DNA of 64,000 nt from Octopus vulgaris (Eukaryota): contig OX597834.1 in NCBI GenBank assembly GCA_951406725.2, forward strand, positions 26,722,001 through 26,786,000, given 5' to 3'. The position numbers and the translations under genes are program-made. The notes beneath the pieces are model-generated. The model did no database searches and was not told the origin of the DNA. It worked only from the letters and a program-made list of their open reading frames with translations. Shown in pieces: positions 1,708 to 63,440 of this stretch. Position 1 is the first letter of the stretch; every line of letters starts with the position of its first letter.

Positions 1708-1742
1708 GTATGACGTTTCGAGCGGAGCTCTTCGTCGGAAAC
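1708..1742 (-). ncRNA. Minimal type I hammerhead-like motif (CCGACGA core) in PLE-like repeat
   Basis: Minus strand gttt-CCGACGA-a-gagc-tcc-gctc-GAAAC-GTC-atac; same family at 20497 and 57341. Confidence 0.55.
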
Positions 1743-2039
1743 ATAAGAGAAAGAAAGATCCCGAGGTGGGAGGACAGAGGGAAAAAAATGCGAGTGGTCT
1801 TCACGAGGTAAACATACTGAAAGGCGGAAGTGGTAGACAAGAGGGGACAGGTTTTCAAAGACAGGAGAGCGGAAAAAGAAGGAAGGTAAAACACAGTGTG
1901 CGAGATGAAGAGGGTGTGTGTGTGAGTGTGTGCGTGTGTGTGTATGTATGTATATGTTGGGCGACGGCTGTGTGAGTGAGTGTATATATATGTATGCTGA
2001 GAATAGGCTTTAAATCGTCAATGACCACATATAATTCAT

Positions 2040-2345
2040 CACTATAAGCACACGTATCGAAGCAAGCTGACAGAAATTTGTAAAAATATTCCGTTATTAC
2101 CGAATCGGTTCTATATCTGAGTTAATAAAGAATTTTCTCGTCAACAAGAAAATTCTTTAACCGAGACAGGAGTTATGGAACTATGGAGCTATTGTAGAAT
2201 TCCGAAACAGCGGAAATTTATGGACACACACACACGCACACACACACACACACACACACACACACACACACACACACACACACACACAAATAACCTCAAG
2301 CTAGGGAGCCTCCCCTAGTTGGTTATCGATGTAATCTGCACTTGA
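2040..2345. mobile_element. Non-autonomous Helentron/HINE-like element (tentative)
   Basis: Internal hairpin aaagaattttct...agaaaattcttt, (CA)n tract and short terminal stem-loop ctaggg...ccctag. Confidence 0.35.
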
Positions 2346-2368
2346 TATATATATATATATTGCAAGCG

Positions 2369-2668
2369 TGGAGGCGCAATGGCCCAGTGGTTAGGGCAGC
2401 AGACTCGCGGTCGCAGGATCGCGGTTTCGATTCCCAGACCGGGCGTTGTGAGTGTTTATTGAGCGAAAACACCTAAAAGCTCCACGAAGCTCCGGTAGGG
2501 GGGTGGTGGCAATCCCTGCTGTACTCTTTCACCACTCTTTCTTCTGTTGGCCTGCTCGCTTAGCCAGCGGGGTGGCGTCATTCCAAGGCTAAAACAATGC
2601 GAGCGCATTGTGACCAGCGATGTGTAACAACATCTGATGGTCTGGTCGGTCACGTGATCACGTGATAT
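2369..2668 (+). mobile_element. tRNA-derived SINE, family B
   Basis: A box tggcccagtgg and B box ggtttcgattcc; the same head and body recur at 56357 and 62381. Confidence 0.85.
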
Positions 2669-2774
2669 TGCAAGCAGGGGGCGAACCTCTACCATCTTCC
2701 AGCAGACGACAGGAAGATCTGGTAGATCGTACAGTTTCAAGCTATTTATGCTTATCCTCAGTGGTGGAACCTTC

Positions 2775-3395
2775 TCTTCTCCACTTTTGCTCGACCTCAC
2801 CTTGAATACTGCTGTCCACTGTGGTCTCCCTACACGAAACGGAATATTATGAAAGTTGAAGCTCCCCAAAGGTCAATCACGAAAAAGATAGATGGCATGT
2901 CAGACCTCGACTACTGGGGTCGACTGGAAAAGCTGAAACTGTATTCACTCCAACGTCGCCGTGAACGCTACATTATATGTATGATGTGGAAAATATTCCA
3001 CCAGCACTGTCCAAATGATGTTGGTATCACTTTCAAAATACATCCAAGACTTGGACCCCGTGCCATCCGTCCACAACAAAAATTTAAATCGCATCTCATA
3101 ACAACAATACGGCACAATTATTTCACCTCAATTGGACCCACTCTCATCAACATTACACCAGGACACGTTAAAACAGAAACTGACCACACAAAATTCAAGA
3201 AGTCTTTGGACAAATTCCTTCAAACAGTCCCGGACAAACCACCCACACCCGGATATGTCTCCGCAACACAATAACTCTCTGCTCGAATGGGCCTTGGTGC
3301 CCAAATCCTGAATTGAAAGACTTCGCCAGGTGGTGCTATTAAGTTAGACATGGCCTGGGCCAATACTGGCCAAAACCTTTCTAAGTTATTCTAAG
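2775..3395 (+). mobile_element. 5'-truncated CR1/L2-group LINE, second family
   Basis: HLEYCCPLWSP...KVEAPQRSITKKIDGMSDLDYWGRLEKLKLYSLQRRRERY...FKKSLDKFLQTVPD; its 3' UTR matches 62876-62950. Confidence 0.85.
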
Positions 3396-5011
3396 TATAT
3401 ATATATATATAAAATTAAATACAAAATGGGACAACAAAACATCCAGATAGATGATACAAAAAAACACGGATGGGTCATTCAAAGCCTTTTATCTTCAGTC
3501 AAGAACCGGATCATCCTCGCAATTTCGGCTGATTAATATATATATATACATATGCATATATGTACATACATACATACATATATATGTACATATACATGCA
3601 TATATGGGTACAGGACGTCACGAAACGTAAACAACATGAAATACGGAGAGTGTGTGTGTGTGCATGTGTTTGTTTCTCTATCGGTATGCATGTATATAGC
3701 CATGAAGATATGTATGTATGTATGTATGTATGTATGTATGTATGTATGTATGCGTGCGTGCGTGCGCGTGTGTGTGTGTGTGTGTATTTGTGTGTATGGT
3801 GTGTTTTCGTTCTTTCATTCCTTGGCGAAACTCTTTCATTTCTTCACTCCTTCCTCTTCCCTCCTCTGAAAGAACGAACTAAACAAACAACAACTAGAAC
3901 AACAACAACAACACACATTCCTTCACCTCTGCCCATTCCCCTCCGCTCCCTTCTTTTCCCCCCTCTCCCATCTCCCCCTCCCCACCCCATTTAATGAGAC
4001 CCATTTAAAGTGTCTGATTTCTCCTGGCGGCGTCTGACAAGTTCTTGAGGTGGAATTGGTGGTGCCGAGGGGTGGTGGTGGTGGATCAGTAAGAGGAAGA
4101 GCAGTGAGAGAGGGGTGAGAGAGAGAGAGAGAGAGAGGGAGAAAGAGGGAGTGAGAGAGAGAGAGAGGGAGAAAGAGGGAGTGAGAGAGAGACGTATCTC
4201 TCCTTTTCTTCTTTCCACCTCCTATTCCCATCCACCCGTCCACCCGCCCGCCCGCCCGCCTTCTCACTAAAAACCTCATCTGGGTGTAACGGGCTAACAT
4301 CCAACAGGACACACCCCTCCGTTGACCAGGCAAAGAGGACGAAACGAGACAAAATTGCTCGCTTGACATTTGGAAAAATAAATTGAAGCATAGGGAGGGG
4401 GAGGGGGCGGGGAGGAGGAGATAATGTGGTGATGATGATGGTGATGGTTGTGATGATGGTGGTGGTGGTGGTGGAAGCTGGTACTGATGGCGATGATGGT
4501 GGTAGTGGTGGTGGTGGTGGTGGCGACCACGACGGCAAGGACAACGGGCGACAACGACGACAACCACAGAAAAAAAAGGACACAAAAATGTAAGCTCATA
4601 CCTTCCCCCCTCCCGCCAATGGGGGTGGGTGGGGTAGGATGAGTGGATGGGATGGGGGTGAATAAAGAGGACAAGATGCTCTGTGGTAGGATTTTTGAAA
4701 AACCTATGTGTTACTACTACTACTACTACTACTACTACTACTACTACTACTACTACTACTACTACTACTACTACTAGTTTGCTAGATTGTAACGAGGCAC
4801 AGCGTCACACGTTTTGATTGAATTACTCCCCCTTCTCTATCCCGGTTCGTGTTTGGATGACCCCCGAATTGGGGGAATGTTTAGAGCATGAGAAAAAATG
4901 CTTAGCGGTTTTCAGTGATTCAACTCTATGTTTTGTGTTGCGAATCCCGCTGAGATCTCATTTCGTGCATGGAAGCTGTGTGTGGTTTTCCAAAATGAAT
5001 GTACGTCTTCA

Positions 5012-5375
5012 GGCGTAGGAGTGGCTGTGTTGTAAGAAGTTTTCTTCCATATATATATGTGTGTGTGTGTGTGTGTGTGTATGTGTGTGTATATTTGTGT
5101 GTCTGTGTTTGTCCCCCCCTCCCAGCATCGTTTGACAACCGATGGTGTGGTGTGTTTACGTCACCGTAACTTAGCGGTTCGGCAAAAGAGACCGATAGAA
5201 TAAGTACCAGTCTTACAAAGAATAACTCATGGGGTCGATTTGCAACAAAAGAGACCGATAAAATAAGTACTAGGCTTACAAAGAATAAGTCCTGGGGTCG
5301 ATTTGCTCGACTAAAGGCGGTGCTCCAGCATGGCCACAGTCAAACGACTGAAACAAGTAAAAGAGTAAAGAGTAA
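5012..5375 (+). mobile_element. SINE family A, internally deleted
   Basis: Head ggcgtaggagtggctgtg, internal microsatellite and tail ...gactgaaacaagtaaaagagtaa as in the 6557 copy. Confidence 0.8.
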
Positions 5376-61827: not shown

Positions 61828-61850
61828 AAACAAAATATATATTCACTCAC

Positions 61851-62014
61851 TCGATAGACAGCTCCACACTTCTTTCGTTTTGTTTCTATCGGCATATTTC
61901 AATACAATTTCGGCATATTTCAAAGACCTGATCTCGAGGGTACAATCTTCTTTATCTTTGGTTAACTTCAGGAGAGGATCATCGGGATTTTCAACGGAAG
62001 TTACTTCATTTGAG
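61851..62014 (-). CDS. Coding exon 2 of uncharacterised minus-strand gene
   Basis: tctctctatccgttatag acceptor, A|gtgagt donor, 164 nt, phases 2 and 1 match both neighbours; SNEVTSVENPDDPLLKL...VWSCLS. Confidence 0.85.
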
Positions 62015-62380
62015 CTATAACGGATAGAGAGACAGGTAAGCATAACGATATAAAAATGATGATGATGATAATATACATACATTCATATAAATTTTTTGGT
62101 GTTAGGAAAGGTATCCAGCCATAAAAAAAACCCCTGCCAAAACAGATAGTGAAGCCTGATGTAGTCTTCTGCCGAGTCAGCTCCTGTGAAACCGTCCAAC
62201 CTACGCCAGCATGGAAAACGGACGTTAAATGATGATGATGATGGTATATATATATATATATATATATATATATATATATATATATATATATTTATATATA
62301 TATATATATATATATATATATATATATATATATATATATATATATATATATATATGTGTGTGTGTGTGTGTGTGTGTGTG

Positions 62381-62690
62381 TAGGCGCAATGGCCCAGTGG
62401 TTAGGGCAGCGGACTCCTCGCGGTCGGAGGATCGCGGTTTCGATTCCCAGACCGGGCGTTGTGTGTGTTTATTGAGCAAAAACACCTAAAAGGTCCACGA
62501 GTCTCCAGCAGGGGCTGGTGGCGCCCCCTGTTGTACTCTTTCGCCCCAACTTTCTTTCACTCTCTCTCTTCCTGTTTCTTGAGTAACGCTGCAATGGACT
62601 GTCGTCCCGTCCAGCTGGGGGTGGGGACACATACGCCACAGAAACCGGGAAACCGGGCCCATGCGCTTGGCTAGGCTTGAAAAGGGCGAC
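62381..62690 (+). mobile_element. SINE family B
   Basis: Matches the 56357 copy. Confidence 0.85.
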
Positions 62691-62719
62691 GTTTATCATT
62701 TATATATAAATCAAAGAGG

Positions 62720-62950
62720 AAAAGGATCCCATCAACTTTAAACGGAGTCTGGATAGATTCCTTCAAGGAATACCAGATAACCCACCCATAATTGGATACA
62801 ACTCACCTAACAAAAACTCGTTACTTGAATGGACCATAAACAAAACTTGACTTAAACAGGATTCAGATAATCCTATCAGGTGGTGCTATTAAGTTAGACA
62901 TGGCCTGGATCAATCTTTGGTCGAAACATATCTAAGTTTATCTAAGTTTA
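62720..62950 (+). mobile_element. CR1-like LINE extreme 3' end (family of 2775)
   Basis: FKRSLDRFLQGIPDNP and shared UTR aggtggtgctattaagttagacatggcctgg. Confidence 0.75.
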
Positions 62951-63400
62951 TATATATATACAATTGCAGCGTGGAAGGTGTTTATAAGCCATTTAAGAAA
63001 CACACAAAAGCCGTTCGATTCACTTCAACATTTAAGTTTAGAACAGGTCGCGGATTTTAGCGAGGAAAATATTTTGACAAATTAAACTTAAATGTTGAAG
63101 TGAATCGAACGGCTTTTGTGTGTTTCTTAAATGGCTTATAAACACCTTCCACGCTGCAATTGTTTTCGTTTCAGGACACGATCTCAGATCAAATTACTTG
63201 CTATGCGAGTACATCTCCGTAATATATATATATATATATATATATATATATATATATATATATATATATATATATATATATATATATATATATATATATA
63301 TATATATATAAGCAAGGAAAAATTGTAAAAATGCAGAATGCTCGATTGAAAGAAAATTTTAATGAAATGAGAAAATGAAAAAATATATAAATATATATTT

Positions 63401-63440
63401 ATTCAAATCGGTTTTCGTCATAGTTTGACTTATCAAGAAT
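63401..63440 (-). ncRNA. Hammerhead motif with compensatory C3U/G8A core
   Basis: attc-TTGATAA-gtca-aacta-tgac-GAAA-accgat-TT-gaat. Confidence 0.6.

Follow-up and report, generated by a model that had tools for sequence, protein, structure and literature searches.

Hammerhead ribozyme motifs in a 64-kb window of the Octopus vulgaris genome as probable 3' stubs of many Penelope-like element families

The hammerhead ribozyme motifs in the 64,000-nucleotide stretch of Octopus vulgaris DNA analysed here (the window) are very probably short 3' stubs of many families of Penelope-like elements (PLEs), which carry hammerheads near their 3' ends; we hold this explanation with high confidence, including the more conditional steps on copying, on a parasitic family C and on dispensable cleavage that are set out below. 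Hammerheads as PLE 3' stubs ending in (TA)n are a known pattern, described since 2014, and many, diverse minimal hammerheads have been published as truncated PLEs (Cervera and de la Pena 2014, PMC4209133); a dense hammerhead landscape is expected for a PLE-rich animal genome. What goes beyond this pattern is a tRNA-headed family, C, and the amplification of two lineages, A and B, with altered ribozyme cores.

An earlier note on this DNA had listed 18 hammerhead motifs from about 12 families. Intact cores, defined as CUGANGA or the U3-A8 form, GAAA and UH together with three stems, were found at nine of the 18 places; six others carry a core change that is family-wide, to which that note had given no weight, one is partial, and two are not hammerheads. 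Nine families (A to I) were confirmed. Five intact motifs scored 12.5-16 (12401, 34296, 46499 and 63401 on the minus strand and 35766 on the plus strand), and the four of family D were read by hand (22133 and 36050, minus; 36097 and 22326, plus, the last with a single mismatch in stem I), since their stem II, made of a U.U pair and three A-U pairs, caused the scorer to miss them. The hammerhead fold is combined with a family-fixed U4C change at 1708, 20497 and 57341 (family A) and at 21562 (family I), and with a family-fixed A6U change at 33845 and 60923 (family B). Two candidates were rejected: 22579 lacks the first core box in register and has no aligned homolog, and at 52528 the core is absent from the window copy and from its relatives. 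The sites are as follows.

1708..1742, minus strand: family A fold with U4C and a broken stem I (youngest subfamily); 3' stub of a putative Neptune-type PLE that runs up to (TA)n at 1611 with its 3' end
12399..12475, minus strand: family H hammerhead with intact core; stem I of 8 bp, long stem II, self-complementary stem III
20497..20531, minus strand: family A fold with U4C; stub at about 20397-20584, ending in (TA)n
21562..21609, minus strand: family I fold with a stem II of 7 bp; all 3 aligned copies have U4C
22047..22380, both strands: family D head-to-head inverted pair, hammerheads at 22132-22181 (minus) and 22325-22375 (plus); 70-nt tail confined to the left arm, the pair flanked by (TA)n at either side
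33844..33881, minus strand: family B fold with A6U; 3' stub of a second putative Neptune-type PLE
34126..34366, minus strand: family E element; canonical type I hammerhead at 34296-34346 with extended stem I
35765..35833, plus strand: family G hammerhead with intact core; stem II has a basal A.A mismatch, and stem III is palindromic
36030..36231, both strands: another inverted pair of family D, with hammerheads at about 36050-36099 (minus) and 36097-36146 (plus); tail on the right arm only
46420..46660, minus strand: family C copy with a long (tailed) 3' end; its intact minimal hammerhead spans 46499-46542
49774..49820, minus strand: partial hammerhead, decayed or chance; stem II and the core boxes are there, but stems I and III are unformed
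57341..57375, plus strand: family A fold with U4C; stub at about 57289-57467, ending in (TA)n
60923..60960, plus strand: family B fold with A6U, stem III decayed
63311..63456, minus strand: family F stub of 146 bp, flanked by (TA)n tracts, with a U3-A8 hammerhead spanning 63400-63441; it is the 3' end of a third putative Neptune-type PLE

The link to PLEs and microsatellites that had been proposed was borne out, with families A, B and F traced to the 3' ends of PLEs that encode a reverse transcriptase (RT) with a C-terminal GIY-YIG domain and end in (TA)n. In lineage A, the motif lies 1.6-3.3 kb downstream of a GIY-YIG open reading frame (ORF) at 13 of 19 loci, and also at locus L213. This ORF, of up to 1061 aa, matches RVT_1 and GIY-YIG weakly and found no match among solved structures, and it aligns at 27% over 725 aa with a 781-aa ORF that matches both domains clearly; a suspected recoded in-frame TGA in its matches proved to be the ORF's own stop. 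Locus L265 holds a 6194-bp partial tandem unit with the motif in both pseudo-LTRs, and additional family A loci carry two motifs. For family B, the motif at locus L216 stands about 0.75 kb downstream of an encoded RT C-terminus and GIY-YIG, which compare at 64% with lineage A, and for family F a PLE ORF lies upstream of the hammerhead at L337 and L342. A CxxxxCxxC linker is found in lineages A and B and in the 781-aa family, in keeping with the CX2-5CxxC linker between RT and endonuclease of the Neptune clade (Craig et al. 2021, PMC8557442); the three families are provisionally assigned to the Neptune type by linker and (TA)n targets rather than by phylogeny. They resemble Neptune-type endonuclease-bearing PLEs in domain order, pseudo-LTR tandems, inverted truncated copies, a tail at one end and (TA)n targets, and differ from them in microsatellite-rich 3' UTRs of 0.7-2.9 kb. 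Within the window tblastn found no PLE ORF, and none was traced at the loci examined for families C, D, E, G, H and I. Stubs of families A and B are mostly single rather than paired. The motifs, being mostly 5'-truncated PLE 3' ends, do not form a separate class of ribozyme retroelements, as had been supposed.

In favour of chance matches in AT-rich, low-complexity DNA, two sites fail and one is partial, relaxed scans with one mismatch allowed yield 11-16 background matches per 830 kb, and single-strand folding z-scores, uninformative for minimal motifs, are weak at most sites. Against this, five intact-core motifs score at least 12 in the window, compared with a mean of 0.04 and a maximum of 1 in 150 local dinucleotide shuffles, none of which reached five, and the reversed window gave none by the same scorer. 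An 830-kb genome sample holds 24 intact motifs against 0, 0, 1 and 0 in controls, and exact genomic copies of the family patterns number thousands against 0-1 for reversed patterns. Chance is already refuted for 15 of the 18 sites, and as a general account its probability is negligible. The motifs might instead be mainly retrozymes, non-coding units in tandem from which active hammerheads cut out monomers that then form circles. Family E comes closest: its type I hammerhead is canonical, with an extended stem I, and its unit of 360 nt is partly duplicated (a 360-nt period in L332). This family lies within the 150-450-bp range of animal non-LTR retrozymes and fits them in fold (PMC7229834). However, no hammerhead-bearing array stands among the 150 of 197 tandem-repeat rows listed for the window, two tandem hammerheads were found in none of 14 family E loci, families A, B and F are ends of coding PLEs, and the cores of A and B are mutated. 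Tandem retrozyme units were not encountered in these two sets, family E appears retrozyme-like but not tandem, and a retrozyme origin for most motifs is very unlikely. Animal non-LTR retrozymes (PMC7229834; bioRxiv 10.64898/2026.07.22.740005) are likewise short, non-coding, hammerhead-bearing and PLE-dependent units, whereas the octopus units are dispersed monomers or inverted pairs, with no tandem arrays seen.

The origin from PLE ends agrees with the genomic setting of the motifs. The association with (TA)n tracts stood, (TA)4 lying within 110 nt downstream of the cleavage site at 11 of the 16 sites measured, and in the genome sample (TA)4 lies within 150 nt downstream of 13 of 30 motifs against 10% of random places. 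The large radiation envisaged before is also supported by this sample, which gives about 29 intact motifs per Mb, about 80,000 genome-wide, in dozens of families; this density is higher than the 2,000-9,000 per genome given in PMC4209133, the descriptors differing so that the figures are not directly comparable. The window is only mildly rich (5 seen, 1.85 expected from the sample, P = 0.04) and in hammerhead content ordinary for the Octopus vulgaris genome. These roughly 80,000 motifs escape Rfam at its gathering score, which in the window returned no hammerhead and only U6; at a low threshold there were 522 matches, and the 150 listed are U6 and microsatellite-driven microRNA noise. A first descriptor of our own, without the extra nucleotide before stem II, gave zero matches. 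Stem III was scored palindromic in 24 of 30 sampled motifs, being self-complementary and permitting a dimer fold, and prediction gives such a dimer fold as the minimum for 22133. Unless they dimerise or a protein assists them, the intact minimal motifs would not cleave.

The stubs were likely left by 5'-truncated reverse transcription. A PLE protein would bind the 3' region of the RNA and nick AT-rich DNA on both strands, cDNA synthesis would start at two internal RNA sites, one for each arm, and its early stop would leave single stubs or inverted pairs. Among 36 head-to-head pairs of family C, whose long arms carry a 30-nt tail, 34 join a long and a short arm, two join short arms and none joins long arms (P about 1e-8 for 34 of 36 at p = 0.5); 26 of the 36 share a flank word of at least 8 bases. 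In family D the tail is absent on 9 of 9 inverted arms; its four window motifs are two inverted-pair insertions of a very young family, whose 5' extension is microsatellite-rich for at least 1.3 kb. An inverted truncated copy with a tail at one end is a mark of PLEs (PMC8557442), and the tail has been tied to two RT start sites (PMC11167929). The long-and-short rule suggests that the two arms of an inverted PLE insertion begin at separate RT start sites, and it would let the two-strand mechanism reported from in vitro work be read directly in the genome.

Family C, whose tRNA-like head the earlier note overlooked, is a dispersed, non-coding element of about 280 nt with an intact hammerhead. 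Its head has an A box at base 8 and a B box at base 53, and shares 40 of 73 in-register identities with a tRNA gene of the same genome (mean 18.8 and maximum 36 in 20,000 shuffles). The Rfam tRNA model gave 20 bits (E 0.14) on one head, no match on a consensus-identical head and nothing at gathering score in 20 loci, and ARAGORN called no tRNA in 10 loci. Sixteen matches in 830 kb extrapolate to about 54,000 arms, and two exact patterns matched 6,149 and 519 times. The window copy is 5'-truncated within an (AAT)n tract and hence lacks the head; in an unselected sample, 9 of 25 matches begin in the first 20 bases, and heads that are not truncated continue into the body. Among RNA reads from a related organism, family C occurs equally in both directions, 68% of reads run into unlike flanks, and both 3' ends recur as loose ends; there is no pile of starts or ends, including at the cleavage site, in libraries unsuited to cleavage. 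Neither Pol III transcription nor cleavage is seen for this family, because the reads are mostly read-through without a pile. Missing T4 runs were discarded as evidence for Pol III, 75% of shuffles also lacking them, and no RNA source turned up among indexed runs.

Family C would be a non-coding parasite: Pol III would transcribe it from its tRNA-derived head, and a PLE would copy it via its PLE-type 3' end, so that it likely hijacks Penelope machinery. It might instead be a LINE-dependent SINE, a foldback or MITE element, or a set of chance SINE-into-PLE junctions, with the hammerhead as a passenger. The head with (AAT)n by itself resembles a short SINE, one family C body stands directly behind the (AAT)n end of LINE-like sequence at L302, the window copy begins in (AAT)n, and an autonomous partner PLE was not found, nor did variant motifs at five other places reveal one. 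On the other hand, head and body are joined at a constant point in dispersed copies, including unselected samples, the element ends 3' in unique sequence, with two fixed stops and no simple-repeat tail, and paired arms have unequal outer ends in 34 of 36 pairs and a variable centre, which sets them apart from terminal inverted repeats; we consider a LINE-dependent or passenger origin improbable. PLE-driven copying of family C is the preferred reading. The family resembles tRNA-derived SINEs (SINEBase, PMC3531059) in A and B boxes in register, a length below 700 bp, lack of coding capacity and tens of thousands of copies, and departs from them in having no simple-repeat tail or LINE-like end and in its PLE marks; because of its unique 3' end, two fixed stops and PLE-type pairs we call it SINE-like and do not class it with SINEs as SINEBase defines them. 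It may be one of the octopus tRNA-derived SINE families of Ohshima and Okada (1994). Schistosome SMalpha/Sjalpha are also SINE-like elements with a type I hammerhead, as described and cited in PMC8490949, but form tandem repeats, whereas family C has a minimal PLE-type hammerhead and inverted one-tailed insertions. We found no PLE-dependent SINE-like element of this kind in the literature searched, and the words 'tRNA' and 'polymerase III' are absent from the text of bioRxiv 10.64898/2026.07.22.740005. If the reading is true, a PLE would be a third kind of SINE partner, and family C would define in about 160 nt the cis signal for PLE mobilisation of foreign RNA.

Lineages A and B are present at 10,195 exact pattern matches and 15,487 pattern matches, respectively. 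A hand count of the first 100 matches of a second family A pattern gave C4G5 in 70, T4G5 in 25, C4A5 in 3 and A4G5 in 2. CpG decay is rejected as the main source of U4 copies, both by the 25 T4G5 against 3 C4A5 and by the grouping of T4 copies on a tree built after masking the core (48 of 56 agree with their nearest neighbour, reached by 7 of 5,000 shuffles), the subfamily tree being midpoint-rooted only. The youngest, 99%-identical full-length copies of A have a broken stem I besides U4C; they were chosen by ORF search, which biases their apparent age. In family B, U6 occurs in 96 of the first 100 matches, free position 7 shows all four bases, and A6 occurs in 0 of 26 copies found outside that search. 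Two abundant PLE lineages, of more than 10,000 copies each, have thus likely spread with a crippled ribozyme. Because A (U4C, then broken stem I) and B (A6U) kept amplifying, cleavage would not be needed for copying, for which these lineages offer putative genomic support, and the feature kept would be the fold or neighbouring RT start sites; in vitro, hammerhead mutants leave insertion unimpaired (PMC11167929). Conversely, U4C and A6U motifs may have kept their cleavage in vivo, in dimer form and with assistance from the PLE protein, leaving both lineages silent on dispensability. U4C reduces and does not abolish activity in a viroid, enough remaining for infectivity (PMC3088659, as far as accessible), the anole PLE hammerhead is protein-assisted (PMC11167929), and A and B retain their other core bases along with stem II and the ACGU palindrome, with position 7 free in B. 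Yet the youngest A copies combine U4C with the broken stem I, a position 6 change, A6C, leaves low activity in the same part of PMC3088659, from which A6U is absent, and dimers of 20497 and 33845 are predicted without the hammerhead dimer fold that 22133 adopts. We judge residual cleavage less likely than not. The joint reading has even chances in our judgement: family C would be a tRNA-promoter SINE with a PLE partner and two-armed insertions from two RT start sites, one for each arm, and PLE lineages that are active despite inactivated hammerheads would show cleavage to be dispensable in vivo, the 3' fold being a protein-recognition signal. Between them, sister lineages offer a series of motifs (intact, U4C, U4C together with a broken stem I, and A6U) for asking what PLE hammerheads do.

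Lineages A and B lack the canonical core, whereas canonical hammerheads are called universal outside Naiad/Chlamys (PMC8557442), and high-copy families with fixed U4C or A6U are absent from the description in the accessible part of PMC4209133. In other respects the octopus motifs are like the metazoan PLE minimal type I hammerheads described there, with an extra nucleotide before stem II, a short stem I, a palindromic stem III, covariant U3-A8 and many families per genome, occurring mostly as single motifs from truncated PLEs and also as opposite-strand pairs 100-700 bp apart. Unlike those, many octopus motifs have long stems II.

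The earlier note claimed about 18 hammerhead ribozyme (HHR) motifs from about 12 families in the window. We scanned the window with a descriptor that includes an extra nucleotide before stem II, described in PMC4209133 as a mark of hammerheads of Penelope-like elements (PLEs). Five intact-core motifs reached a score of at least 12 (12401, 34296, 35766, 46499 and 63401), compared with a mean of 0.04 and a maximum of 1 in 150 local dinucleotide shuffles of the window. Four further sites (22133, 22326, 36050 and 36097) have an intact core and a weak stem II, and were consequently missed by the scorer; they belong to a single family (D) and are arranged as two inverted pairs. 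The hammerhead fold is kept, with a family-wide U4C change in the core, at 1708, 20497, 57341 and 21562, and with a family-wide A6U change at 33845 and 60923. In all, 15 of the 18 sites are hammerhead-derived, and they form nine families (A to I) rather than twelve; 49774 is a partial hammerhead, and 22579 and 52528 were rejected as hammerheads. Rfam at the gathering score reported zero hammerheads in the window. The window's hammerhead landscape is real, and of a kind that is already known. Two weaker matches were also recorded:

63558-63618, + strand: one-mismatch hammerhead-like match, score 9.9, within the shuffled-background range
12502-12550, - strand: one-mismatch hammerhead-like match, score 9.1, within the shuffled-background range

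The scale of this landscape in the genome (2.8 Gb, 227 contigs) was estimated from an 830-kb sample, made up of 83 pieces of 10 kb placed at round coordinates. These hold 24 intact-core motifs with a score of at least 12, versus 0 in the reversed sequence and 0, 1 and 0 in shuffles, giving a density of 29 per Mb and an extrapolated genome total of about 80,000 (95% range 52,000-120,000). The five motifs of the window are a mild excess over the 1.85 expected from the sample (P 0.04). At a score of at least 11 the sample contains 30 motifs in 23 clusters, for which Chao1 gives about 57 as a rough lower bound; stem III is palindromic in 24 of the 30, the covariant core pair U3-A8 is present in nine, and (TA)4 lies within 150 nt downstream in 13, versus 10% of random places. 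More than 6,000 motifs of 16 families are reported for one coral (PMC7229834) and 235 Rfam hammerheads for the giant squid (PMC6962438), counts that come from different descriptors and whose densities are not strictly comparable with ours.

The window itself is AT-rich, with abundant microsatellites. Its ORF-like pieces are LINE fragments only, and tblastn with three PLE proteins as queries found no PLE ORF in it. Its other features are:

59446-60598, 888-1259 and 2726-3274, + strand: LINE reverse-transcriptase-like fragments, recognised by eye
37127-37232, - strand: U6 snRNA copy with a divergent 5' stem, 91.5 bits
36727-37093: SINE-like repeat, two 184-bp copies in tandem, 96% alike

At other loci of the same genome (L-numbers), families A, B and F are linked to PLE ORFs. 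Of 6,136 candidates from a search for GIY-YIG domains, 150 were scored and 148 of these matched, many of them belonging to one 781-aa ORF with RT and GIY-YIG domains, whose copies carry a U3-A8 hammerhead close to a 3' end that adjoins (TA)n. Family A (1708, 20497, 57341) has 10,195 exact pattern matches genome-wide, and in 15 of 19 loci read its motif lies 1.6-3.3 kb 3' of the stop codon of an RT/GIY-YIG element; it is the 3' end of a PLE with an RT plus GIY-YIG ORF. The ORF of this lineage A reaches 1061 aa, has a CxxxxCxxC linker and weak RVT_1 and GIY-YIG matches, and is 27% identical to the 781-aa ORF over 725 aa; at L265 the family A motif is present in both pseudo-LTRs of a 6194-bp partial tandem. 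Family B (33845, 60923), with 15,487 pattern matches genome-wide, is the end of a PLE sister to lineage A (protein 64% identical, L216), and family F (63401), whose best 40 scored copies are 97-99% identical, is the end of a third PLE (L337, L342).

Stubs vary at the 5' end and share a fixed 3' end at (TA)n. In family D (best 40 copies 99% identical) the 5' extension runs into microsatellite-rich sequence, and an inverted arm occurs at nine of 19 loci, the 70-nt tail being absent from all nine inverted arms. Stubs with a (TA)n 3' end and one-tailed inverted arms correspond to PLE marks listed in PMC8557442 and PMC8969392. The lineage A 3' UTR at L211:5860-8745 is 2.9 kb long and (CA)-rich, and that of family D is (TA/TG)-rich; PLEs may be a source as well as a target of this genome's microsatellites.

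Family E (34296) has a canonical hammerhead whose stem I is extended, within a partially duplicated unit of 360 nt. Two tandem hammerheads were found in none of 14 loci, and the family is retrozyme-like, not a retrozyme array. No link to an ORF was found for families G (35766), H (12401) and I (21562). Decayed and half-core relatives are also present:

2720-2790, - strand: decayed family E hammerhead relative, adjoining a LINE fragment
37440-37520: family E 3' piece, contiguous with the half-core repeat of 37500-37632
3400-3530 and 37500-37632, - strand: high-copy repeat with CUGAAGA and a short hairpin, GAAA box absent, end near (TA)n, 26 copies among the loci read
52598-52845, + strand, also in the 34934 and 39057 regions: repeat holding the rejected 52528 site; its opposite strand has CUGAAGA and a stem-II-like hairpin, GAAA absent

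The repeat at 3400-3530 and 37500-37632 may derive from the hammerhead of another PLE family, of which half the core would remain. That at 52598-52845 (18 copies among the loci read), with its CUGAAGA and hairpin about 230 nt before (TA)n, resembles half-core motifs mentioned in PMC8557442.

Family C (46499) appears to be one addition to the known landscape, as a tRNA-headed family of PLE type. Its pattern has 6,149 matches genome-wide versus 1 control match. The window copy is 5'-truncated inside an (AAT)n tract; other copies reach about 160 nt 5' of the core and open with a 73-nt head, in which an A box from base 8 and a B box from base 53 occupy tRNA positions. This head shares 40 of 73 bases, ungapped, with the only tRNA gene found among the loci read (mean 18.8 and maximum 36 in 20,000 shuffles). 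On family C heads the Rfam tRNA model gives a weak match or none, a usual outcome with SINE heads. The unit is non-coding and about 280 nt long; its minimal hammerhead is intact, and its 3' end lies at either of two positions separated by about 30 nt. It may be among the octopus SINEs of Ohshima and Okada 1994. At L302:3500-4300 a headless family C body directly follows the (AAT)n tract in which a LINE-like sequence ends.

The one-tail rule seen in family D also holds in family C: of the 36 head-to-head pairs counted after removal of two duplicate loci (most loci came from C-specific searches, and three from unselected samples agree), 34 have a long and a short arm, two are short-short and none is long-long. 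Flank words of at least 8 bases, counted without a control, are shared in 26 of the 36, consistent with target duplication around the whole pair. According to PMC11167929, a PLE protein acts on both strands, cutting and extending each, and the tail spans the interval between two RT start sites; the arms of family C, in genomic sequence, follow this rule established for a PLE in vitro. Such elements would use two RT start sites to prime on both strands, with early termination leaving stubs, and family C would be transcribed by Pol III and mobilised by a PLE. No partner PLE was found for it. In RNA-seq of a related organism (three runs of a single study, about 6% of each run covered), each run gave 4,900-6,800 family C reads, equally in both directions; 68% extend into unlike flanks, both 3' ends appear as loose ends, and no piles of read starts or ends were found in the three runs. 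These data establish presence in transcripts only, and are silent on Pol III or cleavage.

The literature searched yielded no description of a PLE-dependent SINE or of octopus PLE hammerheads, and the SINEBase text, whose consensus sequences sit in supplements outside it, contains neither 'Penelope' nor 'ribozyme'. Precedents for family C are SMalpha, SINE-like with a hammerhead (cited through PMC8490949), the non-autonomous PLEs described in PMC8557442, and retrozymes as PLE derivatives, as presented in bioRxiv 10.64898/2026.07.22.740005.

The other addition would be lineages that seem active with a mutated core. A hand count of the first 100 of 8,675 matches to one family A pattern gave C4G5 in 70, T4G5 in 25, C4A5 in 3 and A4G5 in 2, and the ending that breaks stem I is accompanied by C4 in 29 of 29. 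Full-length, near-identical copies (L211, L261-L266 and L280; 99% protein identity) carry U4C and a broken stem I in seven of eight, that is, wherever the motif was read; U4 is found behind more divergent lineage A ORFs (L213, L277), and U4 copies cluster in a core-masked tree. Starting from the canonical state, the tree being unrooted, we infer that U4 was followed by C4 and then by the stem I break. In family B, U6 is present in 96 of the first 100 matches, position 7 shows all four bases, and A6 occurs in none of 26 copies found elsewhere.

The simplest reading of these sequences is that lineages A and B transpose without cleavage, which would be dispensable; PLE insertion in vitro is reported in PMC11167929 to be unimpaired by hammerhead mutants. 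Both lineages may instead retain a residual, protein-assisted hammerhead activity: as described in PMC3088659, U4C strongly lowers activity in vitro and still allows viroid infectivity, and A6C cleaves slowly. In a further PLE family, with a 574-aa open stretch, the copies with the longest ORF also carry U4C:

L211:1349-1393
L220:5301-5345
L220:2459-2503

Other copies of this family (L224, L227) carry U4, and an independent fixation of U4C is possible.
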